The translations under genes were made by a program, and so were the position numbers. This document shows positions 566 through 56,222 of a stretch of DNA of 64,000 nt, in pieces. The stretch spans positions 312,542,001-312,606,000 of the forward strand of contig CM097882.1 of the NCBI GenBank assembly GCA_044892505.1, written 5' to 3'. The notes beneath the pieces were generated by a model that saw nothing but the letters and a program-made list of their open reading frames with translations, was not told the DNA's origin and did no database searches. The DNA comes from Schmidtea nova (taxonomy: Eukaryota). Every line of letters starts with the position of its first letter. Positions within the stretch are counted from its first letter, which is position 1.

Positions 566-638
566 GGTTCGATGGTGTAGCGGTTATCACGTCTGCCTAA
601 CACGCAGAAGGTCCCCGGTTCGATCCCGGGTCGAACCA
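566..638 (+). tRNA. trnV(AAC): tRNA-Val(AAC), intronless, eukaryotic type
   Basis: Cloverleaf: acceptor GGTTCGA/TCGAACC, anticodon arm TCTGC-CT AAC AC-GCAGA, T arm CCCGG-TTCGATC-CCGGG, discriminator A73, no encoded CCA. Confidence 0.97.
573..627 (+). promoter_or_regulatory. Pol III type-2 internal promoter: box A (573-583) and box B (617-627); same in every intact copy
   Basis: TGGTGTAGCGG fits box A; GGTTCGATCCC fits box B consensus. Confidence 0.85.
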
Positions 639-640
639 AA

Positions 641-645
641 TTTTT
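641..645 (+). terminator. Pol III oligo-dT terminator (T5), present after every tRNA copy; a T7 run follows in the spacer
   Basis: ...GAACCA-AA-TTTTT-CTC, 3 nt after the discriminator. Confidence 0.8.
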
Positions 646-818
646 CTCAATTCATTATTTGACTTTTATTATATTTGCAACTCTTTTTTTAATTCATAAC
701 GCAATTTTGTTGTTGAATTCTCTACTTTGTACATAAATTTTATTCAAGTGAATTCAGTACATTTTGTCAAGGTAATTCGAAAATCAAACATGCACAACAA
801 TTGTTAGTTGAAACTGTC

Positions 819-891
819 GGTTCGATGGTGTAGCGGTTATCACGTCTGCCTAACACGCAGAAGGTCCCCGGTTCGATCCCGGGTCGAACCA
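819..891 (+). tRNA. trnV(AAC): tRNA-Val(AAC)
   Basis: Identical to 566-638. Confidence 0.97.
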
Positions 892-1071
892 AATTTTTCT
901 CAATTCATTATTTGACTTTTATTATATTTGCAACTCTTTTTTTAATTCATAACGCAATTTTGTTGTTGAATTCTCTACTTTGTACATAAATTTTATTCAA
1001 GTGAATTCAGTACATTTTGTCAAGGTAATTCGAAAATCAAACATGCACAACAATTGTTAGTTGAAACTGTC

Positions 1072-1144
1072 GGTTCGATGGTGTAGCGGTTATCACGTCT
1101 GCCTAACACGCAGAAGGTCCCCGGTTCGATCCCGGGTCGAACCA
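1072..1144 (+). tRNA. trnV(AAC): tRNA-Val(AAC)
   Basis: Identical to 566-638. Confidence 0.97.
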
Positions 1145-1324
1145 AATTTTTCTCAATTCATTATTTGACTTTTATTATATTTGCAACTCTTTTTTTAATT
1201 CATAACGCAATTTTGTTGTTGAATTCTCTACTTTGTACATAAATTTTATTCAAGTGAATTCAGTACATTTTGTCAAGGTAATTCGAAAATCAAACATGCA
1301 CAACAATTGTTAGTTGAAACTGTC

Positions 1325-1397
1325 GGTTCGATGGTGTAGCGGTTATCACGTCTGCCTAACACGCAGAAGGTCCCCGGTTCGATCCCGGGTCGAACCA
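1325..1397 (+). tRNA. trnV(AAC): tRNA-Val(AAC)
   Basis: Identical to 566-638. Confidence 0.97.
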
Positions 1398-1577
1398 AAT
1401 TTTTCTCAATTCATTATTTGACTTTTATTATATTTGCAACTCTTTTTTTAATTCATAACGCAATTTTGTTGTTGAATTCTCTACTTTGTACATAAATTTT
1501 ATTCAAGTGAATTCAGTACATTTTGTCAAGGTAATTCGAAAATCAAACATGCACAACAATTGTTAGTTGAAACTGTC

Positions 1578-1650
1578 GGTTCGATGGTGTAGCGGTTATC
1601 ACGTCTGCCTAACACGCAGAAGGTCCCCGGTTCGATCCCGGGTCGAACCA
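1578..1650 (+). tRNA. trnV(AAC): tRNA-Val(AAC)
   Basis: Identical to 566-638. Confidence 0.97.
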
Positions 1651-1830
1651 AATTTTTCTCAATTCATTATTTGACTTTTATTATATTTGCAACTCTTTTT
1701 TTAATTCATAACGCAATTTTGTTGTTGAATTCTCTACTTTGTACATAAATTTTATTCAAGTGAATTCAGTACATTTTGTCAAGGTAATTCGAAAATCAAA
1801 CATGCACAACAATTGTTAGTTGAAACTGTC

Positions 1831-1903
1831 GGTTCGATGGTGTAGCGGTTATCACGTCTGCCTAACACGCAGAAGGTCCCCGGTTCGATCCCGGGTCGAA
1901 CCA
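1831..1903 (+). tRNA. trnV(AAC): tRNA-Val(AAC)
   Basis: Identical to 566-638. Confidence 0.97.
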
Positions 1904-2083
1904 AATTTTTCTCAATTCATTATTTGACTTTTATTATATTTGCAACTCTTTTTTTAATTCATAACGCAATTTTGTTGTTGAATTCTCTACTTTGTACATA
2001 AATTTTATTCAAGTGAATTCAGTACATTTTGTCAAGGTAATTCGAAAATCAAACATGCACAACAATTGTTAGTTGAAACTGTC

Positions 2084-2156
2084 GGTTCGATGGTGTAGCG
2101 GTTATCACGTCTGCCTAACACGCAGAAGGTCCCCGGTTCGATCCCGGGTCGAACCA
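2084..2156 (+). tRNA. trnV(AAC): tRNA-Val(AAC)
   Basis: Identical to 566-638. Confidence 0.97.
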
Positions 2157-2285
2157 AATTTTTCTCAATTCATTATTTGACTTTTATTATATTTGCAACT
2201 CTTTTTTTAATTCATAACGCAATTTTGTTGTTGAATTCTCTACTTTGTACATAAATTTTATTCAAGTGAATTCTTTCAAGGTTCG

Positions 2286-4920
2286 ATGACTCAATCACCT
2301 GCTGCTCAGTCAACTGCTGCTGATGTGATGACTCAGTCTATTGGAAATCAGTCAACTGTGACGAAGAAATATGAATTAGAAAACATTCTCAAGTATCAAA
2401 TTTCCAGTTTGCAATGTTTTCAATCGATTTTGGATTATTTTTCGCAACTAAATGGTGGAAATCTCGCTACTGCCTCAGTTCTTTCTGATGCGAATGCAAG
2501 TCAACGGAGTTCTTTCGATCAAGGATCTAAAATTTCTCAAAACCAATCTGATAATATGCCACTTTCTTATGCTGATATTGAGACTAAATTCACTAAATCA
2601 AAGGATTTACTGATTGTCAAGCGCCTGGATTCATTGGAGTCTCAATTTATGAATATGGCTGAAAAGTTAGATTATTTGGTTTCTTTTTTTTAATGGCTCT
2701 GTTGATGATTTATCAGATTTTCCTAAAGTAAATGAAAATAATTTAAATAATAATCCTTTCAATAAAAATAAAGTTTTTGATATCAAAGATAAATTAATTG
2801 TAAATAATGTAGTTTTAGATAAATCAAATATTTCAGAATTTATTGAAAATAATATTGCTAAAATTCCTAATAGTTTAATTGATGTAAATAATAAAATGTG
2901 TAATTCAAATAATAAATTTCTAAATAACCCTAATAAAGAGAATGTTAAACATTTTAATAATCCCAAAGAAACATCTTCAATTGATTTGACTAACGATAAA
3001 ATTATGCCAAATGAAAACATAGAAATAATTATTAAAAATAATAAAAAATCTGTTAAAATTATAGAACCTAATAAAACAACTAAACAGAAGTATGATAAAT
3101 TTGAATTTAAAAATCTGGTTCGTATTTTAACGAAAAGGGAACGCCAGAAAATCTTGAATGCCTTCCCTGCTTTAATACAACTAATTAAAAAGAAAGAATC
3201 ACAGAGTAAATATTTTGAAATTAATAAATTTCTTTCGAGCAAAGATTTTAATGTGAATCACTTGAATTTAAATAATTTTGATTATTTTTTCTATAGAAAT
3301 TGTAATCTTTGTGTATCTTTAAAATTGAACAACGCTCCTGTCATTTTATCAGCACCAAAACCTGTTGTTTTAAAAACTATTAAATTAATTGACCATAATA
3401 TCGTCAAAATAAATTCTGAAATCCCTGACTTTGTTCGAGCTCCAATGTCAATTCGAAGATTTTTATTCAATCTTTCGCACGATCTTTCAAACACTGTTTC
3501 CATCAAGGATGAGAAACACAGGGGAAATAAAATAAATAACATTCTTACTTCAATGAAACATAAACAACAATTACCAGATTATTTAATAAAATCAAACATT
3601 AAATACGAAAATGGTGAGTTCTTATTATTAGATTTGACTAACGATAAAATCAAATTGAACGACGATAATAACTTGATAAAATCAAATTTTTCTGAACTTA
3701 CTAGAAGTCAGATTAAAAATCTTTACTATTCTTATCCTTCTCTTAAGGAAGTTTGTTTCGTTGAAAATCTTGAAACAAGATCATCATCCGTTAGTAAAAT
3801 TATCGAATCTTTAAAGTTAATTAATGAATTTCCAAAAAATATCATTTTTAAAGAGGGTAAATTTTATCAGTCTGATAAAAGAACAATCTCACCTAGTAGT
3901 TCTCCTGACATAATGTTCAACCTTGGTCTTTTTAATTTGGCTAGTATGAGTAGAAAAGATTGTGAATTAAAATCCATTTTAGAGAAGACTGGTTGTGACT
4001 TTAAAATAGTTGAAATAATATTCTACCTCAACTATTTAGGCTTGACTCAATCTTTAGAATTTTGCAAAAATCAAACTTATTCTGATTATGTGAGGAATTA
4101 CGTCTGTAATTGCTGCTTGATAAACTCACTCTGTAGTATTGCTGATGTTGATTCGCTTTCATCTGAAGATTTTGAGGGTTGGGCGACCGAAATTGTTCAG
4201 AAAATCCCAGTTTCTTCCTATTACTTCAATAGCTGCCAGGAAAAGCTTTTAAAGCTGAAGCAATGGGACATTTCAACTAAAATCAAAAGAATCCATAACG
4301 TTATTTCACCTGAAATAATATCTTATTTAAATAACTTTCTTGACTCTGTAGACGTAAAATTTCCATCTAAGTCTCAACAACATAATATTCTAATTAAATT
4401 AATGAAAGCTATCAATGACATTAAAATTTTTGATGACATACACGGAAATAAAGCAAAAAGACTTGTTTACTTTTTGCTAAGAGATGCCAAGAAATATTTG
4501 AATAAAAATCAACGATTCAGATTATTTGAATCGAGCAATAAATATTGCACTTCAGAGATGGAGAATATAATTTCAGTAATAATTGAGAACCTTACCAAAG
4601 TTACTGACCATGAAGTTACTACTCCTGAAATCACAGTTGAAGAAACGCCAATTGAAATAACTTGTGATCCTGAACCTATCGTCTTGATTAAGGAAATAAA
4701 CTGTTTAAAATGTAACAATATCATCGAAAAATGCATTCTTGTTAGAGATGGAACAAACGTCAACATCTGTGAAAGCTGTCTATTTGACGCAATTACCTTT
4801 GAAAAGCCGATTCCTGAAGCTACTAATTCGGATATCGAAGAAAATATAGAAACAAATTGTAAGAAATCTTGTCCAAGACCTAGAAAAACAGACAAGAAAA
4901 CATCAACCAAAGCAAAATGA
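2286..4920 (+). pseudogene. E1 ORF1, +1 frameshift at T8 (2684-2691); fragments 2286-2693 (135 aa) and 2896-4920 (674 aa)
   Basis: Colinear with the intact 877-aa ORF1 of E3/E5/E6/E7 except for one extra T. Confidence 0.88.
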
Positions 4921-4926
4921 AGATGT

Positions 4927-7900
4927 GTGCCTGCATCAGCTCAATCGTCTGCCATTCCCTCTAATGAGACTGATGCAGAGAGCACAACTAAAAATAATAT
5001 TTCAACTATCGACAATCGTGATCCTGAAGTGTGGTTTTCTGATAATGATATTGATTGGTATCTTGAAAACCACATTGATAATCCAATGCATGGATATATT
5101 AAATGCTTTATAGTAAATATCATCTGTTCTAACATCACAGAAGATATTGTTGAAATTCCACCATCTATTAGCAATGCTGAAATTGTATTTTGTCCACTCA
5201 ACATTAACAATTCGCACTGGATTCTTTTTGTTTATAGTAAGAAAATGTTATCTTCTTACTTTATTGACCCAATCCTTGCAAACAGACAAAAGCCAATCAA
5301 TAAACAAATGGCTCAGAGAATTAACCTAAAACTGAATAGATTTTTTAATCTAAATATATCTGTGTCCCGACATCCACACAAACATCTTGAATATCAAAAT
5401 AACAGCTTTGATTGTGGCCCATTTACGTGTGCTTATGCTGTGATTATCAGTAAAGATTTGAACAGCTTTCCAAATGGGTTCATAGAGAAAATTCGTACCA
5501 GTGTGCATGAAAATCAAAATCGTATGCAAATAACCGAATCCACCTTATTCGCTGGTACTAACTCCAAGATGGACATGACCAAAATAAATATCAAGAAAGC
5601 CCTTGCAAAAAAGAAAGTCATCACCAACACCTCAGATATGACCAAAGTATTGAACACTCAAAAACCGTGTGTGTCATCAATAATTAGTAAATATTACGAA
5701 AGTAATTCTAAAATAACAGTCTTATCTGCCGAACTAACTTTAAACCTAATTGCACAAAATACCTCCTTCATAGCTGATAATGTCACTTTCAAGCAGTTCA
5801 AAGGAATCGATCATGTTATAAGTATCATTCCTAAATTTAACGATTGGTGTCTCTTTGTCTATTCGAATAAACTTGACAGGAGCTACATGTTCGACTTCAA
5901 TTATCGAAACATTGATGAAAGGCTAATTGAAATTGGTGAAAAGATAACTGAATATCTGAATCAATTCACTCTTGTTTCTAAAATAAAATTCACACCTCAT
6001 CATAGAATTTCTCATCCAACATTTCATTCTTACGATGATCAATATTTTGCAAGTTCTTTTATTGTATTTTTTGAGAAACTTGTCTTTGAAAGAATACTGG
6101 ACAATGATAAGGTTTATGACTCATTAAGTGCTCTAAAATATCAGTCTTGTAAAGATCTTTCTCCTAGCCTAAGTTTCATTAATGGTAAAATATCCGACAA
6201 AATTATTGAGGAATATTTTGCTAGCCTAAACTTATCGACCAAATATATTCTTCTAAACACAACAATGTGTACTGCGCTTTCAGATGATTGCACTGAATAC
6301 TTGAAAGACTTTGTAAACATTGAGTGCATGATGAAGGCTACTATAATCTTTGTAATCATTTCTCCTCCAAGAGCCAACGACTTGCTCATGGTTATTGATT
6401 ACGACGCTGATGAGCACTATTTATTAAGCCCAGTCACTAATGACTTGTTCGTTATGACTGAAGGATTCTGCTATAAATTACTAATTAAAATTAATGAGAT
6501 TAGAGAGAGCACAGGACGTTCCTTGAAATCGCGTAATTGTCGACATGACGTTAAAGGTTCTGGCTTATTTAGTAGGTTATTAATCTGTGCCTTTATTAAA
6601 TATTATGCATTTGACCGATCTCTAGAAAATATCAATCTTCATGAAATTGGCAAAATTATCTACTCACTTGTGCCATTAGTTGATAAAAATGATAATGCTG
6701 AGGAAGAAAGACGACTAAAATCAAAAGCTGTAAACTCTTTAAAACTAAATTTAAAACAGCGAATAGAAAAAGCCAATAATCTTATAATTTCACTTGAACA
6801 CGCCAGTATTGATGAAATCATAAGTGGCATTCTTTCAAATATTCCTCGTCTTAAAGATTTGAACACCGATCACATTCGTACACCATATTTAGGTACTAAA
6901 ATAGAAAAAGCTAGAAAATTCAAAAATTCCACTGAATTTCTGTCAAACATGAAAAAGACTGTGTATAGGATTTTGGGTAATAACACAGAATCAATTGCAC
7001 CTCCTTTTCAGGAAATTATTGACACTTTCAGTCATCCTGATACATTACCTAGAAATTGGGAAAACATCTTAAAATTCACTAAGAGTTCTAAATTTAGTCT
7101 TGAATTAAATCCAATGACACCTAAAGAAATCCTTTCAAGTCTTTGCAAAGCTGACAACACTTCTCCAGGTCTTGATAATGTTTGTTATAAAGATCTTTTG
7201 TTATTAGACCCTGAATGTAAATTGCTAGCTTTTCTGTACAATAAAATCCTAAAATTAGACATTATTCCTACAAGTTGGAAATCATTTAAAACCATACTAA
7301 TCCCCAAACCAGATAAAAATGGCCAATATCATAAAATATATTCTTGGCGACCAATTGCCTTATTATCTGTCATTTACAAAGTCTTCGCTTCAGTTTTGGC
7401 AAATCGTCTAAGCTTATGGATAAGAAATAATTCCATGTTACACATTGGCCAAAAGGGTGGTTCGGAGTACGAAGGATGTATTGAACACAACTCTATTCTT
7501 TCTGCTATCGTCGAACATTCAAAATACAGCAAGTCTTCACCTTTAACGATAGCTTGGCTAGACATCAAAGATGCCTTCGGAAGTGTTCCACATGACTACA
7601 TGTGGACACTGTTAAAACACATAAATGTTAGTGATAGGTTTGTAGGAATTTTAAAACTGCTCTATACTGATACAAGCTCGTTTTATTGTTGCAATAAAAT
7701 GCAGACACCGGATATTCCAATAAAGAAAGGAGTTAAACAAGGTTGTCCGATCTCAATGATATTGTTTGCAATAGCTATTAACCCAGTACTTGAGTCTATT
7801 AATCTATCAAACGTTAATACTTTTACGATTGGAACATCTCCGGTACAGGTGTTGGCTTATGCGGATGATATCGCACTTATCGCGACAAATACCTCTGATC

Positions 7901-9537
7901 TGCAAATACTCATAAACGTTGCTGTAAACACTGCTAAAACAATTGGATTTGAATATCGTCCAGAAAAGTGCGCTTATATGCAATACCCTAAAATAGAAAC
8001 TGTAAGCGAGATTTCTGTCAACAACGTTCTTATAAAAAAGATTGCAACAAATGAATTTTACCAATACTTGGGAGTACCAATAGGTGACAATAATGATCAA
8101 AGTCCCTATGAAATTCTAAGCAAAGTAATTGAAGACACAAAGAAAATAGCAAATTCTGATCTTTACGGCTGGCAAAAACTTAAAGCGTATAAGGTCTTTC
8201 TGCATTCTCGCTTGATTTTTCCATTTAGAACTAGGGAAATCAAAACAAGTTCTTTAGCTGATTCGAGTAAAAATTCAAAATTAAATGTAAATAATACGAG
8301 TATTTTGAGGAGTCATCTTAGAAAAATATTGCACTTGCCACACTACTCTGAGATTAGCTATTTTTATAATTCTACTGAAAACGGCGGTGCAGGCTGCATA
8401 GACTTACTTGACGAGTATCATACACAGACAATCGTGTACTTTTTCCGTTTGTTAACATCAACGTGCGAATATTCGAAAAAGATAAATACAGACTCGCTTT
8501 TATTTGTCACAAGTCCGAGACTCGGAATCAAAAATCCAGTTCTTAAACAAAGTTTAGAATGGATAAATGGAAAAGACAGCAAGAAAAACAACAGTGGTTG
8601 CAAAACTCGATTTTATCGGTTGCGATCATCCATTGCTTACTTTTCTAAAGTTCACAACATTAAATTGTTATTTGAAACAGTGAAAGGGAATCCTTCTATC
8701 CGGATAACCACTACACTTAAGGGAACACGTATATTATTACCAACATTAAGAAAAGCCTTGTCAATGATTTTACATTCAGCTCTCCAGGATTCGTATCTCG
8801 AGAAATGGGAGAATAGCAATCATAATAATCTGCTTGTATCTGCGATTAAACTCTGTCCACTGGTCAACAGGCTTATTTTCCGCAGTGATTTGACAGAATT
8901 TGAATGGAGATTCGTCCATCGAGCAAGAACGAATACATTATCAATATTTGCGAAGCCATATAAAACTGGCGAAAATCGTCTTTGTCGTAGATGTAAGCTT
9001 GAAGACGAGACTTTATCACACGTTCTTCAAACTTGTAAAATGAACAAATCTTGGGCAACTAGTCGACATAACGCTTGCTTAGAAAAAATAAAAAGCGAGT
9101 TGAAAGATCCAAACTTGTTAGTTGTTGCGGATCATAAATGTTCCCTAGTACCGACATCAACTGAACGCGTTGATTTAATAATAACCAATAATGATAAAAA
9201 GACCATATTATTGGTAGACATGAAATGCCCAATCGATTCGGTGCCCAACTTTGATTTGGCTGATAAAAAAAACATAGAAAAGTATGATAAACTAAAATCA
9301 GAAATTAAAATAGCCAAACCCGATTATAAAGTTGAGTTGTTTACCTGCATCATAGGCTCATTAGGATCCATTGAAATTAAAACACCTGATCTTTTAGTAA
9401 AAATGGGAGTAAAAGAAAATAAAGTAAAACGTCTGATGAAAGAGTGTGCAATTAGCAATATTGCGCACTCGGCCAAAATTTGGTACTTTCATACCAATGG
9501 CTTTCTTCCAGATAATATAAGACAAACTTGTAAATAA
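4927..9537 (+). CDS. E1 ORF2 polyprotein: Ulp1-like protease(s), RT, CCHC, RLE. Frame is open from 4921; the track start is GTG; first ATG is 5086
   Basis: WFSDNDI/HW/IDP/QNNSFDCG; SPGLD, WRPIALL, LDIKDAFGSVPH, GVKQGCPIS, YADD, YLGV; CRRC-x8-H-x4-C, RHN, RVD..DMK..KY. Confidence 0.95.
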   Translation: MPASAQSSAIPSNETDAESTTKNNISTIDNRDPEVWFSDNDIDWYLENHIDNPMHGYIKCFIVNIICSNITEDIVEIPPSISNAEIVFCPLNINNSHWILFVYSKKMLSSYFIDPILANRQKPINKQMAQRINLKLNRFFNLNISVSRHPHKHLEYQNNSFDCGPFTCAYAVIISKDLNSFPNGFIEKIRTSVHENQNRMQITESTLFAGTNSKMDMTKINIKKALAKKKVITNTSDMTKVLNTQKPCVSSIISKYYESNSKITVLSAELTLNLIAQNTSFIADNVTFKQFKGIDHVISIIPKFNDWCLFVYSNKLDRSYMFDFNYRNIDERLIEIGEKITEYLNQFTLVSKIKFTPHHRISHPTFHSYDDQYFASSFIVFFEKLVFERILDNDKVYDSLSALKYQSCKDLSPSLSFINGKISDKIIEEYFASLNLSTKYILLNTTMCTALSDDCTEYLKDFVNIECMMKATIIFVIISPPRANDLLMVIDYDADEHYLLSPVTNDLFVMTEGFCYKLLIKINEIRESTGRSLKSRNCRHDVKGSGLFSRLLICAFIKYYAFDRSLENINLHEIGKIIYSLVPLVDKNDNAEEERRLKSKAVNSLKLNLKQRIEKANNLIISLEHASIDEIISGILSNIPRLKDLNTDHIRTPYLGTKIEKARKFKNSTEFLSNMKKTVYRILGNNTESIAPPFQEIIDTFSHPDTLPRNWENILKFTKSSKFSLELNPMTPKEILSSLCKADNTSPGLDNVCYKDLLLLDPECKLLAFLYNKILKLDIIPTSWKSFKTILIPKPDKNGQYHKIYSWRPIALLSVIYKVFASVLANRLSLWIRNNSMLHIGQKGGSEYEGCIEHNSILSAIVEHSKYSKSSPLTIAWLDIKDAFGSVPHDYMWTLLKHINVSDRFVGILKLLYTDTSSFYCCNKMQTPDIPIKKGVKQGCPISMILFAIAINPVLESINLSNVNTFTIGTSPVQVLAYADDIALIATNTSDLQILINVAVNTAKTIGFEYRPEKCAYMQYPKIETVSEISVNNVLIKKIATNEFYQYLGVPIGDNNDQSPYEILSKVIEDTKKIANSDLYGWQKLKAYKVFLHSRLIFPFRTREIKTSSLADSSKNSKLNVNNTSILRSHLRKILHLPHYSEISYFYNSTENGGAGCIDLLDEYHTQTIVYFFRLLTSTCEYSKKINTDSLLFVTSPRLGIKNPVLKQSLEWINGKDSKKNNSGCKTRFYRLRSSIAYFSKVHNIKLLFETVKGNPSIRITTTLKGTRILLPTLRKALSMILHSALQDSYLEKWENSNHNNLLVSAIKLCPLVNRLIFRSDLTEFEWRFVHRARTNTLSIFAKPYKTGENRLCRRCKLEDETLSHVLQTCKMNKSWATSRHNACLEKIKSELKDPNLLVVADHKCSLVPTSTERVDLIITNNDKKTILLVDMKCPIDSVPNFDLADKKNIEKYDKLKSEIKIAKPDYKVELFTCIIGSLGSIEIKTPDLLVKMGVKENKVKRLMKECAISNIAHSAKIWYFHTNGFLPDNIRQTCK
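5023..5451 (+). other. Ulp1/SENP (C48)-like cysteine protease domain in ORF2 (shown for E1; present in all copies)
   Basis: His97 (HW, 5215), Asp114 (5266), Gln157 and Cys163 (QxNxxDCG, 5413) in C48 order. Confidence 0.85.
7114..8091 (+). other. Non-LTR reverse transcriptase domain (shown for E1)
   Basis: RT motifs SPGLD to YLGV; YADD at 7858-7869. Confidence 0.96.
8983..9290 (+). other. CCHC zinc knuckle and restriction-like (PD-D/ExK) endonuclease (shown for E1)
   Basis: CRRC 8983, H 9019, C 9034; RHN 9064; RVD 9166; DMK 9217; KY 9280. Confidence 0.88.
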
Positions 9538-9542
9538 ATAAT

Positions 9543-9556
9543 TATATATATATATA
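9543..9556. repeat. (TA)7 tract at the start of the 3' UTR ((TA)8 in E6)
   Basis: Directly visible after the ORF2 stop in every complete copy. Confidence 0.85.
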
Positions 9557-9891
9557 AATATTTGCTTTTTAAACTCTGTAAATAAAATTTAAGGTAAATA
9601 TTTTGTAAAGTAATTTTTGTATTAAATATCCAATCTTTTTAATCTGATAAATTGTCTTTGAGAGTTATTAAATTGGGAGACCAAGTATTCTGCGACGTAT
9701 GTCACTTATTCTAGAATTATCAACTTCAAAAGAATACAGTCGCAAAGCTGGATGACGAAATCCAAAGAACCAGAAACTTCCATTCAGATTGAACAATTAT
9801 ATTTTGACTGTGATTGTTTAGGGACTAATCCATGTTGATTAGATAATCTGTAAAAAAATATGTCAAACTTGTTATATTTAATAAATGTTTA

Positions 9892-11087: not shown

Positions 11088-13722
11088 ATGACTCAATCAC
11101 CTGCTGCTCAGTCAACTGCTGCTGATGTGATGACTCAGTCTATTGGAAATCAGTCAACTGTGACGAAGAAATATGAATTAGAAAACATTCTCAAGTATCA
11201 AATTTCCAGTTTGCAATGTTTTCAATCGATTTTGGATTATTTTTCGCAACTAAATGGTGGAAATCTCGCTACTGCCTCAGTTCTTTCTGATGCGAATGCA
11301 AGTCAACGGAGTTCTTTCGATCAAGGATCTAAAATTTCTCAAAACCAATCTGATAATATGCCACTTTCTTATGCTGATATTGAGACTAAATTCACTAAAT
11401 CAAAGGATTTACTGATTGTCAAGCGCCTGGATTCATTGGAGTCTCAATTTATGAATATGGCTGAAAAGTTAGATTATTTGGTTTCTTTTTTTTAATGGCT
11501 CTGTTGATGATTTATCAGATTTTCCTAAAGTAAATGAAAATAATTTAAATAATAATCCTTTCAATAAAAATAAAGTTTTTGATATCAAAGATAAATTAAT
11601 TGTAAATAATGTAGTTTTAGATAAATCAAATATTTCAGAATTTATTGAAAATAATATTGCTAAAATTCCTAATAGTTTAATTGATGTAAATAATAAAATG
11701 TGTAATTCAAATAATAAATTTCTAAATAACCCTAATAAAGAGAATGTTAAACATTTTAATAATCCCAAAGAAACATCTTCAATTGATTTGACTAACGATA
11801 AAATTATGCCAAATGAAAACATAGAAATAATTATTAAAAATAATAAAAAATCTGTTAAAATTATAGAACCTAATAAAACAACTAAACAGAAGTATGATAA
11901 ATTTGAATTTAAAAATCTGGTTCGTATTTTAACGAAAAGGGAACGCCAGAAAATCTTGAATGCCTTCCCTGCTTTAATACAACTAATTAAAAAGAAAGAA
12001 TCACAGAGTAAATATTTTGAAATTAATAAATTTCTTTCGAGCAAAGATTTTAATGTGAATCACTTGAATTTAAATAATTTTGATTATTTTTTCTATAGAA
12101 ATTGTAATCTTTGTGTATCTTTAAAATTGAACAACGCTCCTGTCATTTTATCAGCACCAAAACCTGTTGTTTTAAAAACTATTAAATTAATTGACCATAA
12201 TATCGTCAAAATAAATTCTGAAATCCCTGACTTTGTTCGAGCTCCAATGTCAATTCGAAGATTTTTATTCAATCTTTCGCACGATCTTTCAAACACTGTT
12301 TCCATCAAGGATGAGAAACACAGGGGAAATAAAATAAATAACATTCTTACTTCAATGAAACATAAACAACAATTACCAGATTATTTAATAAAATCAAACA
12401 TTAAATACGAAAATGGTGAGTTCTTATTATTAGATTTGACTAACGATAAAATCAAATTGAACGACGATAATAACTTGATAAAATCAAATTTTTCTGAACT
12501 TACTAGAAGTCAGATTAAAAATCTTTACTATTCTTATCCTTCTCTTAAGGAAGTTTGTTTCGTTGAAAATCTTGAAACAAGATCATCATCCGTTAGTAAA
12601 ATTATCGAATCTTTAAAGTTAATTAATGAATTTCCAAAAAATATCATTTTTAAAGAGGGTAAATTTTATCAGTCTGATAAAAGAACAATCTCACCTAGTA
12701 GTTCTCCTGACATAATGTTCAACCTTGGTCTTTTTAATTTGGCTAGTATGAGTAGAAAAGATTGTGAATTAAAATCCATTTTAGAGAAGACTGGTTGTGA
12801 CTTTAAAATAGTTGAAATAATATTCTACCTCAACTATTTAGGCTTGACTCAATCTTTAGAATTTTGCAAAAATCAAACTTATTCTGATTATGTGAGGAAT
12901 TACGTCTGTAATTGCTGCTTGATAAACTCACTCTGTAGTATTGCTGATGTTGATTCGCTTTCATCTGAAGATTTTGAGGGTTGGGCGACCGAAATTGTTC
13001 AGAAAATCCCAGTTTCTTCCTATTACTTCAATAGCTGCCAGGAAAAGCTTTTAAAGCTGAAGCAATGGGACATTTCAACTAAAATCAAAAGAATCCATAA
13101 CGTTATTTCACCTGAAATAATATCTTATTTAAATAACTTTCTTGACTCTGTAGACGTAAAATTTCCATCTAAGTCTCAACAACATAATATTCTAATTAAA
13201 TTAATGAAAGCTATCAATGACATTAAAATTTTTGATGACATACACGGAAATAAAGCAAAAAGACTTGTTTACTTTTTGCTAAGAGATGCCAAGAAATATT
13301 TGAATAAAAATCAACGATTCAGATTATTTGAATCGAGCAATAAATATTGCACTTCAGAGATGGAGAATATAATTTCAGTAATAATTGAGAACCTTACCAA
13401 AGTTACTGACCATGAAGTTACTACTCCTGAAATCACAGTTGAAGAAACGCCAATTGAAATAACTTGTGATCCTGAACCTATCGTCTTGATTAAGGAAATA
13501 AACTGTTTAAAATGTAACAATATCATCGAAAAATGCATTCTTGTTAGAGATGGAACAAACGTCAACATCTGTGAAAGCTGTCTATTTGACGCAATTACCT
13601 TTGAAAAGCCGATTCCTGAAGCTACTAATTCGGATATCGAAGAAAATATAGAAACAAATTGTAAGAAATCTTGTCCAAGACCTAGAAAAACAGACAAGAA
13701 AACATCAACCAAAGCAAAATGA
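11088..13722 (+). pseudogene. E2 ORF1, +1 frameshift at T8 (11486-11493)
   Basis: Fragments 11088-11495 and 11698-13722. Confidence 0.88.
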
Positions 13723-13728
13723 AGATGT

Positions 13729-16700
13729 GTGCCTGCATCAGCTCAATCGTCTGCCATTCCCTCTAATGAGACTGATGCAGAGAGCACAACTAAAAATAAT
13801 ATTTCAACTATCGACAATCGTGATCCTGAAGTGTGGTTTTCTGATAATGATATTGATTGGTATCTTGAAAACCACATTGATAATCCAATGCATGGATATA
13901 TTAAATGCTTTATAGTAAATATCATCTGTTCTAACATCACAGAAGATATTGTTGAAATTCCACCATCTATTAGCAATGCTGAAATTGTATTTTGTCCACT
14001 CAACATTAACAATTCGCACTGGATTCTTTTTGTTTATAGTAAGAAAATGTTATCTTCTTACTTTATTGACCCAATCCTTGCAAACAGACAAAAGCCAATC
14101 AATAAACAAATGGCTCAGAGAATTAACCTAAAACTGAATAGATTTTTTAATCTAAATATATCTGTGTCCCGACATCCACACAAACATCTTGAATATCAAA
14201 ATAACAGCTTTGATTGTGGCCCATTTACGTGTGCTTATGCTGTGATTATCAGTAAAGATTTGAACAGCTTTCCAAATGGGTTCATAGAGAAAATTCGTAC
14301 CAGTGTGCATGAAAATCAAAATCGTATGCAAATAACCGAATCCACCTTATTCGCTGGTACTAACTCCAAGATGGACATGACCAAAATAAATATCAAGAAA
14401 GCCCTTGCAAAAAAGAAAGTCATCACCAACACCTCAGATATGACCAAAGTATTGAACACTCAAAAACCGTGTGTGTCATCAATAATTAGTAAATATTACG
14501 AAAGTAATTCTAAAATAACAGTCTTATCTGCCGAACTAACTTTAAACCTAATTGCACAAAATACCTCCTTCATAGCTGATAATGTCACTTTCAAGCAGTT
14601 CAAAGGAATCGATCATGTTATAAGTATCATTCCTAAATTTAACGATTGGTGTCTCTTTGTCTATTCGAATAAACTTGACAGGAGCTACATGTTCGACTTC
14701 AATTATCGAAACATTGATGAAAGGCTAATTGAAATTGGTGAAAAGATAACTGAATATCTGAATCAATTCACTCTTGTTTCTAAAATAAAATTCACACCTC
14801 ATCATAGAATTTCTCATCCAACATTTCATTCTTACGATGATCAATATTTTGCAAGTTCTTTTATTGTATTTTTTGAGAAACTTGTCTTTGAAAGAATACT
14901 GGACAATGATAAGGTTTATGACTCATTAAGTGCTCTAAAATATCAGTCTTGTAAAGATCTTTCTCCTAGCTTAAGTTTCATTAATGGTAAAATATCCGAC
15001 AAAATTATTGAGGAATATTTTGCTAGCCTAAACTTATCGACCAAATATATTCTTCTAAACACAACAATGTGTACTGCGCTTTCAGATGATTGCACTGAAT
15101 ACTTGAAAGACTTTGTAAACATTGAGTGCATGATGAAGGCTACTATAATCTTTGTAATCATTTCTCCTCCAAGAGCCAACGACTTGCTCATGGTTATTGA
15201 TTACGACGCTGATGAGCACTATTTATTAAGCCCAGTCACTAATGACTTGTTCGTTATGACTGAAGGATTCTGCTATAAATTACTAATTAAAATTAATGAG
15301 ATTAGAGAGAGCACAGGTCGTTCCTTGAAATCGCGTAATTGTCGACATGACGTTAAAGGTTCTGGCTTATTTAGTAGGTTATTAATCTGTGCCTTTATTA
15401 AATATTATGCATTTGACCGATCTCTAGAAAATATCAATCTTCATGAAATTGGCAAAATTATCTACTCACTTGTGCCATTAGTTGATAAAAATGATAATGC
15501 TGAGGAAGAAAGACGACTAAAATCAAAAGCTGTAAACTCTTTAAAACTAAATTTAAAACAGCGAATAGAAAAAGCCAATAATCTTATAATTTCACTTGAA
15601 CACGCCAGTATTGATGAAATCATAAGTGGCATTCTTTCAAATATTCCTCGTCTTAAAGATTTGAACACCGATCACATTCGTACACCATATTTAGGTACTA
15701 AAGTAGAAAAAGCTAGAAAATTCAAAAATTCCACTGAATTTCTGTCAAACATGAAAAAGACTGTGTATAGGATTTTGGGTAACAACACAGAATCAATTGC
15801 ACCTCCTTTTCAGGAAATTATTGACACTTTCAGTCATCCTGATACATTACCTAGAAATTGGGAAAACATCTTTAAATTCACTAAGAGTTCTAAATTTAGT
15901 CTTGAATTAAATCCAATGACACCTAAAGAAATCCTTTCAAGTCTTTGCAAAGCTGACAACACTTCTCCAGGTCTTGATAATGTTTGTTATAAAGATCTTT
16001 TGCTATTAGACCCTGAATGTAAATTGCTAGCTTTTCTGTACAATAAAATCCTAAAATTAGACATTATTCCTACAAGTTGGAAATCATTTAAAACCATACT
16101 AATCCCTAAACCAGATAAAAATGGCCAATATCATAAAATATATTCTTGGCGACCAATTGCCTTATTATCTGTCATTTACAAAGTCTTCGCTTCAGTTTTG
16201 GCAAATCGTCTAAGCTTATGGATAAGAAATAATTCCATGTTACACATTGGCCAAAAGGGTGGTTCGGAGTACGAAGGATGTATTGAACACAACTCTATTC
16301 TTTCTGCTATCGTCGAACATTCAAAATACAGCAAGTCTTCACCTTTAACAATAGCTTGGCTAGACATCAAAGATGCCTTCGGAAGTGTTCCACATGACTA
16401 CATGTGGACACTGTTAAAACACATAAATGTTAGTGATAGGTTTGTAGGAATTTTAAAACTGCTCTATACTGATACAAGCTCGTTTTATTGTTGCAATAAA
16501 ATGCAGACACCGGATATTCCAATAAAGAAAGGAGTTAAACAAGGTTGTCCGATCTCAATGATATTGTTTGCAATAGCTATTAACCCAGTACTTGAGTCTA
16601 TTAATCTATCAAACGTTAATCCTTTTACGATTGGAACATCTCCGGTACAGGTGTTGGCTTATGCGGATGATATCGCACTTATCGCGACAAATACCTCTGA

Positions 16701-19384: not shown

Positions 19385-22018
19385 ATGACTCAATCACCTG
19401 CTGCTCAGTCAACTGCTGCTGATGTAATGACTCAGTCTATTGCAAATCAGTCAACTGTGACGAAGCAATATGAATTAGAAAACATTCTCAAATATCAAAT
19501 TTCCAGTTTGCAATATTTTCAATCGATTTTGGATTATTTTTCTCAACTAAATGGTGGAAATCTCGCTACTGCCTCAGTTCTATCTGATGCGAATGCAAGT
19601 CAACGGAGTTCTTTCGATCAAGGATCTAAAATTTCTCCAAACCAATCTGATAATATGCCACTTTCTTATGCTGATATTGAGACTAAATTCACTAAATCAA
19701 AGGATTTACTTATTGTCAAGCGCCTGGATTCATTGGAGTCTCAATTTATGAATATGGCTGAAAAGTTAGATTATTTGGTTTCTTTGTTTAATGGCTCTGT
19801 TGATGATTTATCAGATTTTCCTAAAGTAAATGAAAATAATTTAAATAATAATCCTTTCAATAAAAATAAAGTTTTTGATATCAAAGATAAATTAATTGTA
19901 AATAATGTAGTTTTAGATAAATCAAATATTTCAGAATTTATTGAAAATAATATTGCTAAAATTCCTAATAGTTTAATTGATGTAAATAATAAAATGTGTA
20001 ATTCAAATAATAAATTTCTAAATAACCCTAATAAAGAGAATGTTAAACATTTTAATAATCCCAAAGATACATCTTCAATTGATTTGACTAACGATAAAAT
20101 TATGCCAAATGAAAACATAGAAATAATTATTAAAAATAATAAAAAATCTGTTAAAATTATAGAACTTTATAAAACAACTAAACAGAAGTATGATAAATTT
20201 GAATTTAAAAGTCTGGTTCGTATTTTAACGAAAAGGGAACGCCAGAAAATCTTGAATGCCTTCCCTGCTTTAATACAACTAATTAAAAAGAAAGAATCAC
20301 AGAGTAAATATTTTGAAATTAATAAATTTCTTTCGAGCAAAGATTTTAATGTGAATCACTTGAATTTAATTAATTTTGATTATTTTTTCTATAGAAATTG
20401 TAATCTTTGTGTATCTTTAAAATTGAACAACGCTCCTGTCATTTCATCAGCACCAAAACCTGTTGTTTTAAAAACTATTAAATTAATTGACCATAATATC
20501 GTCAAAATAAATTCTGAAATCCCTGACTTTGTTCGAGCTCCAATGTCAATTCGAAGATTTTTATTCAATCTTTCGCACGATCTTTCAAACACTGTTTCCA
20601 TCAAGGATGAGAAACACAGGGGAAATAAAATAAATAACATTCTTACTTCAATGAAACATAAACAACAATTACCAGATTATTTAATAAAATCAAACATTAA
20701 ATACGAAAATGGTGAGTTCTTATTATTAGATTTGACTAACGATAAAATCAAATTGAACGACGATAATAACTTGATAAAATCAAATTTTTCTGAACTTACT
20801 AGAAGTCAGATTAAAAATCTTTACCATTCTTATCCTTCTCTTAAGGAAGTTTGTTTCGTTGAAAATCTTGAAACAAGATCATCATCCGTTAGTAAAATTA
20901 TCGAATCTTTAAAGTTAATTAATGAATTTCCAAAAAATATCATTTTTAAAGAGGGTAAATTTTATCAGTCTGATAAAAGAACAATCTCACCTAGTAGTTC
21001 TCCTGACATAATGTTCAACCTTGGTCTTTTTAATTTAGCTAGTATGAGTAGAAAAGATTGTGAATTAAAATCCATTTTAGAGAAGACTGGTTGTGACTTT
21101 AAAATAGTTGAAATAATATTCTACCTCAACTATTTAGGCTTGACTCAATCTTTAGAATTTTGCAAAAATCAAACTTATTCTGATTATGTGAGGAATTACG
21201 TCTGCAATTGCTGCTTGATAAACTCACTCTGTAGTATTGCTGATGTTGATTCGCTTTCATCTGAAGATTTTGAGGGTTGGGCGACCGAAATTGTTCAGAA
21301 AATCCCAGTTTCTTCCTATTACTTCAATAGCTGCCAGGAAAAGCTTTTAAAGCTGAAGCAATGGGACATTTCAACTAAAATCAAAAGAATCCATAACGTT
21401 ATTTCACCTGAAATAATATCTTATTTAAATAACTTTCTTGACTCTGTAGACGTAAAATTTCCATCTAAGTCTCAACAACATAATATTCTAATTAAATTAA
21501 TGAAAGCTATCAATGACATTAAAATTTTTGATGACATACACGGAAATAAAGCAAAAAGACTTGTTTACTTTTTGCTAAGAGATGCCAAGAAATATTTGAA
21601 TAAAAATCAACGATTCAGATTATTTGAATCGAGCAATAAATATTGCACTTTAGAGATGGAGAATATAATTTCAGTAATAATTGAGAACCTTACCAAAGTT
21701 ACTGACCATGAAGTTACTACTCCTGAAATCACAGTTGAAGAAACGCCAATTGAAATAACTTGTGATCCTGAACCTATCGTCTTGATTAAGGAAATAAACT
21801 GTTTAAAATGCAACAATATCATCGAAAAATGCATTCTTGTTAGAGATGGAACAAACGTCAACATCTGTGAAAGCTGTCTATTTGACGCAATTACCTTTGA
21901 AAAGCCGATTCCTGAAGCTACTAATTCGGATATCGAAGAAAATATAGAAACAAATTGTAAGAAATCTTGTCCAAGACCTAGAAAAACAGACAAGAAAACA
22001 TCAACCAAAGCAAAATGA
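19385..22018 (+). CDS. E3 ORF1, 877 aa, function unknown (coiled coil, Asn-rich region, C-terminal C4 zinc finger, basic tail)
   Basis: Long open frame conserved across copies; CLKC-x18-CESC. Confidence 0.88.
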   Translation: MTQSPAAQSTAADVMTQSIANQSTVTKQYELENILKYQISSLQYFQSILDYFSQLNGGNLATASVLSDANASQRSSFDQGSKISPNQSDNMPLSYADIETKFTKSKDLLIVKRLDSLESQFMNMAEKLDYLVSLFNGSVDDLSDFPKVNENNLNNNPFNKNKVFDIKDKLIVNNVVLDKSNISEFIENNIAKIPNSLIDVNNKMCNSNNKFLNNPNKENVKHFNNPKDTSSIDLTNDKIMPNENIEIIIKNNKKSVKIIELYKTTKQKYDKFEFKSLVRILTKRERQKILNAFPALIQLIKKKESQSKYFEINKFLSSKDFNVNHLNLINFDYFFYRNCNLCVSLKLNNAPVISSAPKPVVLKTIKLIDHNIVKINSEIPDFVRAPMSIRRFLFNLSHDLSNTVSIKDEKHRGNKINNILTSMKHKQQLPDYLIKSNIKYENGEFLLLDLTNDKIKLNDDNNLIKSNFSELTRSQIKNLYHSYPSLKEVCFVENLETRSSSVSKIIESLKLINEFPKNIIFKEGKFYQSDKRTISPSSSPDIMFNLGLFNLASMSRKDCELKSILEKTGCDFKIVEIIFYLNYLGLTQSLEFCKNQTYSDYVRNYVCNCCLINSLCSIADVDSLSSEDFEGWATEIVQKIPVSSYYFNSCQEKLLKLKQWDISTKIKRIHNVISPEIISYLNNFLDSVDVKFPSKSQQHNILIKLMKAINDIKIFDDIHGNKAKRLVYFLLRDAKKYLNKNQRFRLFESSNKYCTLEMENIISVIIENLTKVTDHEVTTPEITVEETPIEITCDPEPIVLIKEINCLKCNNIIEKCILVRDGTNVNICESCLFDAITFEKPIPEATNSDIEENIETNCKKSCPRPRKTDKKTSTKAK

Positions 22019-22024
22019 AGATGT

Positions 22025-25000
22025 GTGCCTGCATCAGCTCAATCGTCTGCCATTCCCTCTAATGAGACTGATGCAGAGAGCACAACTAAAAATAATATTT
22101 CAACTATCGACAATCGTGATCCTGAAGTGTGGTTTTCTGATAATGATATTGATTGGTATCTTGAAAACCACATTGATAATCCAATGCATGGATATATTAA
22201 ATGCTTTATAGTAAATATCATCTGTTCTAACATCACAGAAGATATTGTTGAAATTCCACCATCTATTAGCAATGCTGAAATTGTATTTTGTCCACTCAAC
22301 ATTAACAATTCGCACTGGATTCTTTTTGTTTATAGTAAGAAAATGTTATCTTCTTACTTTATTGACCCAATCCTTGCAAACAGACAAAAGCCAATCAATA
22401 AACAAATGGCTCAGAGAATTAATCTAAAACTGAATAGATTTTTTAATCTAAATATATCTGTGTCCCGACATCCACACAAACATCTTGAATATCAGAATAA
22501 CAGCTTTGACTGTGGCCCATTTACGTGTGCTTATGCTGTGATTATCAGTAAAGATTTGAACAGCTTTCCAAATGGGTTCATAGAGAAAATTCGTACCAGT
22601 GTGCATGAAAATCAAAATCGTATGCAAATAACCGAATCCACCTTATTCGCTGGTACTAACTCCAAGATGGACATGACCAAAATAAATATCAAGAAAGCCC
22701 TTGCAAAAAAGAAAGTCATCACCAACACCTCAGATATGACCAAAGTATTGAACACTCAAAAACCGTGTGTGTCATCAATAATTAGTAAATATTACGAAAG
22801 TAATTCTAAAATAACAGTCTTATCTGCCGAACTAACTTTAAACCTAATTGCACAAAATACCTCCTTCATAGCTGATAATGTCACTTTCAAGCAGTTCAAA
22901 GGAATCGATCATGTTATAAGTATCATTCCTAAATTTAACGATTGGTGTCTCTTTGTCTATTCGAATAAACTTGACAGGAGCTACATGTTCGACTTCAATT
23001 ATCGAAACATTGATGAAAGGCTAATTGAAATTGGTGAAAAGATAACTGAATATCTGAATCAATTCACTCTTGTTTCTAAAATAAAATTCACACCTCATCA
23101 TAGAATTTCTCATCCAACATTTCATTCTTACGATGATCAATATTTTGCAAGTTCTTTTATTGTATTTTTTGAGAAACTTGTCTTTGAAAGAATACTGGAC
23201 AATGATAAGGTTTATGACTCATTAAGTGCTCTAAAATATCAGTCTTGTAAAGATCTTTCTCCTAGCCTAAGTTTCATTAATGGTAAAATATCCGACAAAA
23301 TTATTGAGGAATATTTTGCTAGCCTAAACTTATCGACCAAATATATTCTTCTAAACACAACAATGTGTACTGCGCTTTCAGATGATTGCACTGAATACTT
23401 GAAAGACTTTGTAAACATTGAGTGCATGATGAAGGCTACTATAATCTTTGTAATCATTTCTCCTCCAAGAGCCAACGACTTGCTCATGGTTATTGATTAC
23501 GACGCTGATGAGCACTATTTATTAAGCCCAGTCACTAATGACTTGTTCGTTATGACTGAAGGATTCTGCTATAAATTACTAATTAAAATTAATGAGATTA
23601 GAGAGAGCACAGGACGTTCCTTGAAATCGCGTAATTGTCGACATGACGTTAAAGGTTCTGGCTTATTTAGTAGGTTATTAATCTGTGCCTTTATTAAATA
23701 TTATGCATTTGACCGATCTCTAGAAAATATCAATCTTCATGAAATTGGCAAAATTATCTACTCACTTGTGCCATTGGTTGATAAAAATGATAATGCTGAG
23801 GAAGAAAGACGACTAAAATCAAAAGCTGTAAACTCTTTAAAACTAAATTTAAAACAGCGAATAGAAAAAGCCAATAATCTTATAATTTCACTTGAACACG
23901 CCAGTATTGATGAAATCATAAGTGGCATTCTTTCAAATATTCCTCGTCTTAAAGATTTGAACACCGATCACATTCGTACACCATATTTAGGTACTAAAAT
24001 AGAAAAAGCTAGAAAATTCAAAAATTCCACTGAGTTTCTGTCAAACATGAAAAAGACTGTGTATAGGATTTTGGGTAACAACACAGAATCAATTGCACCT
24101 CCTTATCAGGAAATTATTGACACTTTCAGTCATCCTGATACATTACCTAGAAATTGGGAAAACATCTTAAAATTCACTAAGAGTTCTAAATATAGTCTTG
24201 AATTAAATCCAATGACACCTAAAGAAATCCTTTCAAGTCTTTGCAAAGCTGACAACACTTCTCCAGGTCTTGATAATGTTTGTTATAAAGATCTTTTGTT
24301 ATTAGACCCTGAATGTAAATTGCTAGCTTTTCTGTACAATAAAATCCTAAAATTAGACATTATTCCTACAAGTTGGAAATCATTTAAAACGATACTAATC
24401 CCCAAACCAGATAAAAATGGCCAATATCATAAAATATATTCTTGGCGACCAATTGCCTTATTATCTGTCATTTACAAAGTCTTCGCTTCAGTTTTGGCAA
24501 ATCGTCTAAGCTTATGGATAAGAAATAATTCCATGTTACACATTGGCCAAAAGGGTGGTTCGGAGTACGAAGGATGTATTGAACACAACTCTATTCTTTC
24601 TGCTATCGTCGAACATTCAAAATACAGCAAGTCTTCACCTTTAACGATAGCTTGGCTAGACATCAAAGATGCCTTCGGAAGTGTTCCACATGACTACATG
24701 TGGACACTGTTAAAACACATAAATGTTAGTGATAGGTTTGTAGGAATTTTAAAACTGCTCTATACTGATACAAGCTCGTTTTACTGTTGCAATAAAATGC
24801 AGACACCGGATATTCCAATAAAGAAAGGAGTTAAACAAGGTTGTCCGATCTCAATGATATTGTTTGCAATAGCTATTAACCCAGTACTTGAGTCTATTAA
24901 TCTATCAAACGTTAATCCTTTTACGATTGGAACATCTCCGGTACAGGTGTTGGCTTATGCGGATGATATCGCACTTATCGCGACAAATACCTCTGATCTG

Positions 25001-30062: not shown

Positions 30063-30068
30063 AGATGT

Positions 30069-38357: not shown

Positions 38358-38363
38358 AGATGT

Positions 38364-46906: not shown

Positions 46907-46912
46907 AGATGT

Positions 46913-56216: not shown

Positions 56217-56222
56217 AGATGT

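Follow-up and report, generated by a model that had tools for sequence, protein, structure and literature searches.

The window analysed here is a stretch of 64,000 nucleotides from the Schmidtea nova contig CM097882.1 (positions 312,542,001 to 312,606,000 of the forward strand), numbered below from its first letter. It contains seven complete copies, plus a partial one, of a 7.6-kb retrotransposon that lacks long terminal repeats (non-LTR) and is of the restriction-like endonuclease (RLE) type, arranged head to tail and interspersed with 30 tRNA-Val(AAC) genes that lie within 253-bp repeats. In all seven complete copies, two open reading frames (ORFs) share one frame and are separated by a single TGA, whose positions agree with those given in a preliminary description of this DNA. 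That description had proposed that the UGA is a site of programmed readthrough and that the stem-loop behind it is the stimulatory element. The features of the first copy, and the equivalent sites in the others, are collected in Table 1.

Table 1. Coordinates of the features of the retrotransposon and its flanks in the window
Feature	Position	Strand	Remarks
tRNA-Val(AAC) genes in 253-bp repeats flanking the element	566..2156	+	30 in the window
ORF1 of copy 1	2286..4920	+	877 aa when intact, as at 19385-22018; 1-nt insertion near 2684
Out-of-frame ORF	4917..4964	+	15 codons; its AUG overlaps the stop (AUGA)
In-frame UGA between ORF1 and ORF2	4918..4920	+	AAA before it; candidate readthrough codon
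ORF2	4921..9537	+	1538 aa stop to stop
Stem, 5' arm	4926..4943	+	lower helix 4926-30, core 4931-39, upper helix 4940-43
GTG, codon 3 after the stop	4927..4929	+	in the lower helix; candidate start if ORF2 is reinitiated
Stem loop	4944..4964	+	21 nt; sequence varies between families
Stem, 3' arm	4965..4986	+	with A and AGA bulges
Ulp1/C48 protease domain	5023..5520	+	PF02902 over cut-off
Reverse transcriptase core	7300..8079	+	PF00078, E 1.8e-29
CCHC zinc knuckle and restriction-like endonuclease motif	8983..9225	+	CRRC..H..C and R-V-D-x14-D-M-K
3' untranslated region	9538..9891	+	contains conserved blocks; SECIS not found; abuts the 3' part of tRNA-Val
Same stop and stem, copy 2	13720..13788	+	
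Same stop and stem, copy 3	22016..22084	+	ORF1 intact
Same stop and stem, copy 4	30060..30128	+	
Same stop and stem, copy 5	38355..38423	+	ORF1 intact
Same stop and stem, copy 6	46904..46972	+	ORF1 intact
Same stop and stem, copy 7	56214..56282	+	ORF1 intact

The ORF1-ORF2 junction

An intact ORF1 of 877 aa is present in four of the seven complete copies (copies 3, 5, 6 and 7), and a 1-nt insertion in a T run shifts the frame in copies 1, 2 and 4 (window positions 2684, 11486 and 27826). Because copy 1 as assembled carries this insertion, it cannot yield the 2,416-aa fusion that had been proposed on its coordinates; the continuity of the frame across the stop stands, but the intact ORF1 that the product needs occurs only in the other four copies. 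Most public contigs lack the extra T, which could represent a minor allele or have arisen as an error in assembly. ORF1 is conserved as a protein across the families described below (773–877 aa), and its C-terminal C4 zinc-finger-like motif is lost in one of them, family F. ORF1 gave no Pfam match over the cut-off, no Atlas match and no match in an alignment search of proteins, and its AlphaFold model (mean predicted local distance difference test score 49.6) matched no PDB fold at E<=0.001.

ORF2 opens with 32 codons that are predicted to be disordered. Its protease domain matches SENP/Ulp1 proteins by both sequence and fold and contains His99, Asp116, Gln159 and Cys165, and Trp38 (5032-34) corresponds to the Trp of the Ulp1 PRRWLND motif. 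Residues 1-330 of ORF2 had no match in a search that covered shorter proteins. The predicted layout of ORF2, in which the Ulp1 protease is followed by the reverse transcriptase (RT), the CCHC knuckle and the RLE, is that of the NeSL clade. NeSL-1 itself is defined by a single ORF and a spliced-leader target; here there are two ORFs split by TGA, and the flanks are tRNA-Val. As a separate observation, the region at window 5020-6680 comprises three tandem Ulp1-like alpha/beta units (about residues 33-200, 250-410 and 420-585 of ORF2), only the first of which has the catalytic His and Cys.

The sequence before the stop reads AAA GCG AAA TGA in copy 4. The base after the UGA is A and not the C of the leaky UGA-C context, a caveat that the preliminary description had itself raised. 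The stem of 18 bp has its arms where they had been placed: TGTGC (4926-30) pairs with GCACA (4982-86), CTGCATCAG (4931-39) with CTGATGCAG (4970-78), and CTCA (4940-43) with TGAG (4965-68), so that the lower helix begins 5 nt and the core helix 10 nt after the stop. Folding of 4918-4995 gave a minimum free energy of -25.4 kcal/mol (z -4.02), which none of 200 shuffled sequences equalled. The lower helix is slightly shifted in the minimum free energy fold, and the GTGC/GCAC register described earlier is the one kept in six families. The reported GC-richness also holds (0.45 against 0.32 in the element). Ranked by stability among 75-nt windows, the 75 nt after the stop come second of 478 in the window's own family and first of 465–471 in each of four other families; over these five families the GC content of this segment is 0.44–0.47, against 0.32.

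The 90 bases 3' of the stop are identical in all seven complete copies. The invariance of the hairpin, to which attention had been drawn, is therefore real but uninformative, because the copies differ at only 86 of 7,704 columns (~99.5% identical). A detail of the earlier account needs correction: the first in-frame ATG of ORF2, at 5086, does lie inside the Ulp1 domain, but it is codon 56 after the stop rather than Met54. The ATGs at 4917 and 4923 are both out of frame, as stated, and open ORFs of 15 and 13 codons, respectively.

Diverged families and homologues

More informative comparisons came from families found by searching the contigs of the genome with P0001, a public protein of 52% identity, and with PF02902. 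Six families make up the window's clade, namely the window's own (A), four that are dispersed (B-E) and a sixth (F). ORF1 is 35–63% and ORF2 53–93% identical across the six, and 44–63% and 68–93%, respectively, within A-E. All six have AAA-TGA in frame and the stem. Homologues lacking the in-frame arrangement and the hairpin had been named in advance as evidence against readthrough, and the diverged families give the opposite outcome.

Across families A-E, no invariant nucleotide run in about 7 kb is longer than those at the two arms, which measure 23 nt at the 5' arm and 16 nt at the 3' arm, the next longest being 11; when F1 is added they remain the longest (15 and 10 nt, next 8). In A-E, the same codon is kept at 12 of the 14 invariant residues in codons 1-23 of ORF2, the exceptions being a loop Ser and the terminal pair, compared with 238 of 1,046 elsewhere. 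The joint figure for this excess, 1e-9, ignores the relatedness of the families; tested in pairs, it gave p values of 3.5e-4 (A-B), 1e-4 (A-E) and 0.001 (A-C). These comparisons show selection on both arms at the nucleotide level.

The identity of the stop is equally constant. Exact patterns run against the whole genome counted 434 copies with TGA and the A-E arm and 50 with TGA and the F arm, whereas sense variants at the stop numbered two (one TTA and one AGA) and TAA, TAG and TGG were not found, with patterns that demanded an A directly before the codon. Among 60 retrieved loci bearing the arm, TGA is present in 58 and the 3' arm is intact in all. Across the six family representatives, 14 of the 18 stem pairs never vary and 96% of cells pair. 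No in-frame AUG is common to all six families: the first in-frame Met is Met56 in A, Met37 in B-E and Met65 in F, compared with a Ulp1 Trp at 38 or 31. A GTG at codon 3 is invariant throughout.

The arm signature is present in register in 5 of 18 database proteins with the Ulp1 anchor motif. Except at Ser and Arg, the residues dictate six of the nine core pairs, in which the paired bases occupy first or second codon positions. P0001, which starts at codon 3 after the stop, retains the arm residues with a changed loop, and both it and P0031 keep 6/6 of the residue-fixed pairs. P0024 (PAPV..TGAD, with a shorter loop) implies a change from U-A to C-G, and P0019 (PTSV..ADVD) one from G-C to A-U. 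A score of 6/6 arises in 0–12% of shuffles and is reached by P0026 without homology, and we take the foreign signatures, including the two implied compensatory pairs, as modest support for a conserved stem. The frame of P0031 is open across the junction, from the C4 motif to the protease, and has Ser in place of the stop and Val as codon 3; this protein looks decayed.

A more distant clade (RT 31–38% identical to that of the window; ORF2 31–71% identical within the clade) also has ORF1, TGA and ORF2 in one frame, with the stop at a different codon, that of the Ulp1 Trp. In 38 distinct contexts from 83 motif matches, the codon at this site is TGA in 20, TGG in 10, CCG in 4, TCA in 2, and TAG and TGT in one each. 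CTA-TC follows the TGA in 19 of the 20 contexts and CTG-TC in the other; CTA makes up only 14–31% of Leu codons in the ORFs of this clade. In a further family, represented by two loci that the motif missed (L140, 4050-4061, and L142, 3536-3547, in oriented coordinates), the TGA occupies this Ulp1 position as well, with TGG-TC after it. At locus L089, APSQ-W-LSDSAIEIFF aligns to yeast Ulp1 APRR-W-LNDTIIEFF (E 4.2e-12) with flanks on both sides of the stop; the Trp itself reflects the translation code chosen, and the flanking match is independent of that choice. The protease motif in this clade straddles the stop, and the first Met comes 29–81 codons later.

One sister family has TGG at the site in an open frame, and another has CCG, likewise in an open frame. 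The TGG and CCG families are nested among TGA families in the RT tree, where long branches meet near the root, and this nesting suggests that the stop was lost. Many loci of the distant clade are decayed; long intact ORF1s are found in L089, L091, L092, L098, L102 and L142. A hairpin after the stop was not significant in this clade except at L099 (z -2.5 to -3.2), where it begins about 29 nt beyond the stop. With its stop on a Trp codon, its UGA-CUA context and TGG in a sister family, the distant clade carries what would be expected of readthrough, as judged from sequence.

A metagenome scan identified three loci; in two of them, L155 and L156, the RT ORF is preceded by an in-frame TGA. L155 encodes 734 aa, then TGA (2283-2285, AAC TGA CAA), then 1148 aa; the stop of L156 lies at 495-497 (AAA TGA TGG). 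No significant stem follows the stop in either. Both are single contigs from other RLE lineages, and may be decayed.

Proposed readthrough and its alternatives

We consider it probable that the UGA is subject to programmed readthrough, yielding a minor fusion of ORF1 with the protease, RT and RLE. Most ribosomes would stop at the UGA and release the 877-aa ORF1 protein, which would accumulate in excess. A minority, probably delayed at the mRNA entry channel by the stem and helped by the 5' AA, would insert a near-cognate Trp, Cys or Arg and continue into a 2,416-aa ORF1-linker-protease-RT-RLE product. Later self-cleavage of this product by the Ulp1-like protease is a guess made by analogy with gammaretroviral gag-pro-pol. 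Because codons 1-32 are predicted to be disordered, the inserted residue need not matter in the window's clade; in the distant clade it would. The stem seems to take the place of a leaky UGA-C context, which the distant clade uses at another codon.

The published record of readthrough signals offers several parallels. A 5' AA favours readthrough (as cited in PMC10085805). Reported stem spacers measure 7–9 nt and the mRNA entry channel 11–12 nt (PMC3159437, PMC13517186), and the core of the present stem starts, at 10 nt, about at the end of the channel as given in PMC13517186. Paired peaks of synonymous conservation have been used as a signature of such stems, and Drosophila kelch combines UGA-A with a stem (PMC3159437). 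Extending the argument to both clades, we lean towards the view that a whole branch of protease-bearing RLE elements uses readthrough fusion and arrived at it at least twice, through a stem in the linker and through UGA-CUA on the Ulp1 Trp; in the distant clade an intact protease would then exist only in the readthrough product, and some sisters would have reverted to a single ORF.

Several observations weigh against readthrough at this UGA. The synonymous excess is weaker against the farthest family (A-F1 9/12, p 0.034; B-F1 7/10, p 0.13). Covariation, proposed earlier as a check on the stem, came out mixed: the residues of P0024 and P0019 imply compensation, but at the DNA level the six family representatives have no double change (0), and for that reason the arms could still act through their primary sequence. 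The +4 base in the window's clade is A, G or U, never C. Families B-E have a Met just ahead of the Ulp1 Trp. Given its RT identity, the distant clade serves as an analogy and does not represent the same site. Among foreign homologues, the core of P0013 contains an A-G mismatch, most others lack the arms or score as by chance, and the gene calls of P0001, P0013, P0019 and P0024 start at codon 3.

The last of these points bears on the main rival, in which ribosomes terminate and reinitiate at the GUG six bases on (or at Met37 or Met56), the stem holds the post-termination ribosome in place and ORF2 is made as a separate protein. SART1 uses stop-start coupling with a downstream structure and L1 an unconventional reinitiation (PMC5972666, PMC3894237). 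The codon-3 GTG, invariant in six families and the point from which those four proteins are called, would serve as the start, the AUGA overlap is present in all six families, and a start at codon 3 would cost no domain since the first 32 codons are predicted to be disordered. The overlapping AUG, however, is out of frame and closes after 15–16 codons, whereas in SART1-type coupling the adjacent or overlapping AUG lies in the ORF2 frame; the context of the GUG is weak, with U at -3 and C at +4, and the invariance of this codon is explained by its own pairing in the stem. Reinitiation also leaves unexplained the constant UGA and constant frame, as well as a distant clade in which the motif extends across the stop and the first Met is far downstream. 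We regard it as unlikely, although it deserves the most serious attention among the alternatives. A related candidate, restart at the out-of-frame AUGA followed by a frameshift, was rejected, as no slippery site was seen and the short ORF closes within the loop.

A lower probability still attaches to the production of ORF2 from a spliced, trans-spliced or subgenomic RNA, with the stem serving another role such as packaging of the ribonucleoprotein or RNA stability. There is a conserved AG at 4938-39, 37 candidate in-frame GT..AG pairs can be drawn, and covariation that would prove a translational role is lacking. Yet no donor agrees with the consensus at more than 6 of 9 letters, retrotransposition would lose an intron while the stop is kept in 484 copies, and such an origin would not account for an in-frame UGA that constantly lies five bases ahead of the stem. 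In the contigs of four sequencing runs whose kind is not recorded, no joint, start or edit that could be used was seen, and these runs are weighed on neither side. This origin of ORF2 is, in our judgement, very improbable.

Two ways of recoding the UGA are fainter prospects. In the first, A-to-I editing beside the stem would convert UGA in some of the RNA to UGI, which is decoded like UGG (Trp). A long stem does adjoin the stop, and the distant clade needs Trp at its stop; but the UGA lies outside the predicted helix, most distant-clade families have no proximal stem, and edited RNA would be copied back as TGG, of which there are 0 copies against 434 with TGA. We give editing hardly any credence. 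The same applies to selenocysteine, with the stem as a SelN-type redefinition element. Only UGA is used, and Naiad Penelope-like elements encode predicted selenoproteins (PMC8557442), but the codon aligns to Ser (P0031) and to Trp or Pro (sister families in the distant clade), not to a conserved Cys, and no selenocysteine insertion sequence (SECIS) was found by Rfam in the window and six other loci or by a custom pattern in five 3' untranslated regions (UTRs). A mitochondrial-type code was set aside, as all 14–21 Trp codons of each ORF2 are TGG and L089 terminates on TGA.

Finally, an inactivating mutation spread by amplification of the array, which the near-identical, recombining copies of the window and the ORF1 frameshift in three of seven might suggest, we count as refuted, the stop being common to six families, of which four are dispersed and have numerous intact copies of ORF2, and both ORFs being conserved as proteins.

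Known systems, insertion sites and element ends

Gammaretroviruses, and LTR elements such as Tj1 and Tosmo1-3 (PMC10085805), are known to use readthrough of a stop that separates a structural ORF from the enzymes. As at the present junction, Moloney murine leukaemia virus has a single in-frame stop just before the protease, followed by RT and an integration enzyme, and its 3' RNA structure is encoded by the region of the protease N-terminus (PMC13517186). The virus uses UAG and a pseudoknot; the present element is of the non-LTR kind, combines UGA with a stem-loop, and encodes an RLE and a cysteine protease of the Ulp1 type. Tj1, Tosmo1-3, Tcry1 and Tca2 share the in-frame TGA, the 5' AA and a structural ORF ahead of the enzymes, and their TGA-CT context is as in our distant clade (PMC10085805). 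These are Ty3/Ty1-type LTR elements, whereas the window's clade lacks the +4 C and has a stem. In alphaviruses, coltiviruses, furoviruses and Drosophila kelch, a UGA is followed by a stem of 12 or more bp with paired synonymous peaks (PMC3159437); those cases are tested or covarying, and their 7–9-nt spacers compare with 5 nt (lower helix) or 10 nt (core) here.

SART1 and L1 are also translated from bicistronic non-LTR RNA, and SART1 needs a structure downstream of its junction (PMC5972666, PMC3894237). They reinitiate at an AUG, either in a UAAUG overlap or after a 63-nt spacer, whereas the present junction has no in-frame AUG; they also encode an apurinic/apyrimidinic-type endonuclease where this element has an RLE. 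NeSL-1, Utopia-1_TSP and planarian R5/LIN likewise have a Ulp1-like protease before the RT and RLE, and R5 has two ORFs. Unlike NeSL and Utopia, the present element has three tandem protease-like repeats and tRNA-Val as its target, and while those elements are described as one protein in the account of PMC4640811, it has two ORFs split by UGA.

We found no description of readthrough in a non-LTR element in the literature covered, which did not extend to Repbase or to the R5 and NeSL-1 papers; a Repbase entry may already note the stop. The treatments of non-LTR ORF2 translation in two reviews name reinitiation, internal ribosome entry sites and 2A skipping, not readthrough (PMC5972666, PMC3894237, in the portions that bear on this subject). 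How the ORF2 protein of non-LTR elements is produced is a long-standing question, and the junction offers a signal that is short and open to testing, for which the stem-type, UGA-CUA-type and stop-free families of a single genome are natural controls. It would add a candidate to the rare cases of structure-dependent readthrough at UGA-A/G/U and would represent convergence with retroviral gag-pro-pol. For annotation, and for the mining of RLE elements as gene-writing tools, the N-terminal 877 aa would otherwise be missed or the element called dead.

The array of element and tRNA-Val(AAC) spans window positions 566-62508 and at least 0.5 Mb of the contig (about 312.23-312.80 Mb). Its 5' and 3' junctions are identical in every copy and its haplotypes are mosaic; a single insertion amplified with the array fits as well as repeated targeting. 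Planarian LIN families occupy tRNA and 28S genes, with LIN15 and LIN25 targeting tRNA genes, and by eye the 3' end of the element resembles those of LIN24_SM and LIN25_SM (PMC4640811). Relatives in the genome are inserted in other tRNA arrays (tRNA-Met, tRNA-Thr and tRNA-Cys for family F; tRNA-Lys for family G), represented by loci L085, L088, L104, L086, L087 and L089; F1 joins tRNA-Met and tRNA-Cys at the same D-loop GGTAG, and F2 joins tRNA-Thr in the anticodon arm. These four targets are absent from the LIN-family target list given in PMC4640811. The dispersed families B-E had no tRNA at 12 of 12 loci.

ORF1 starts nearly at the 5' junction (window 2271-2290), where nine tRNA-like bases end in its ATG. 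The ATG of L085 comes directly after the spacer and that of L089 after the 5' part of tRNA-Lys. These 5' ends, like that of L104, have nearly no 5' UTR; TTTCAAG ahead of the ORF1 ATG could be a trans-splice acceptor. At the other end, the 3' UTR has blocks (TCTGC.A, TCGCAAAGCYGGA..TCC, TCCATG and TTGTTATATTTAATAAA) that recur in the window (9690-9891) and in L041, L046, L044, L050 and L085, and that could form a shared structure by which the RT recognizes its template. Families B and C often terminate in an (AAT)n or (ATT)n microsatellite, as in the 3' flanks of L045, L046, L048, L049 and L052.

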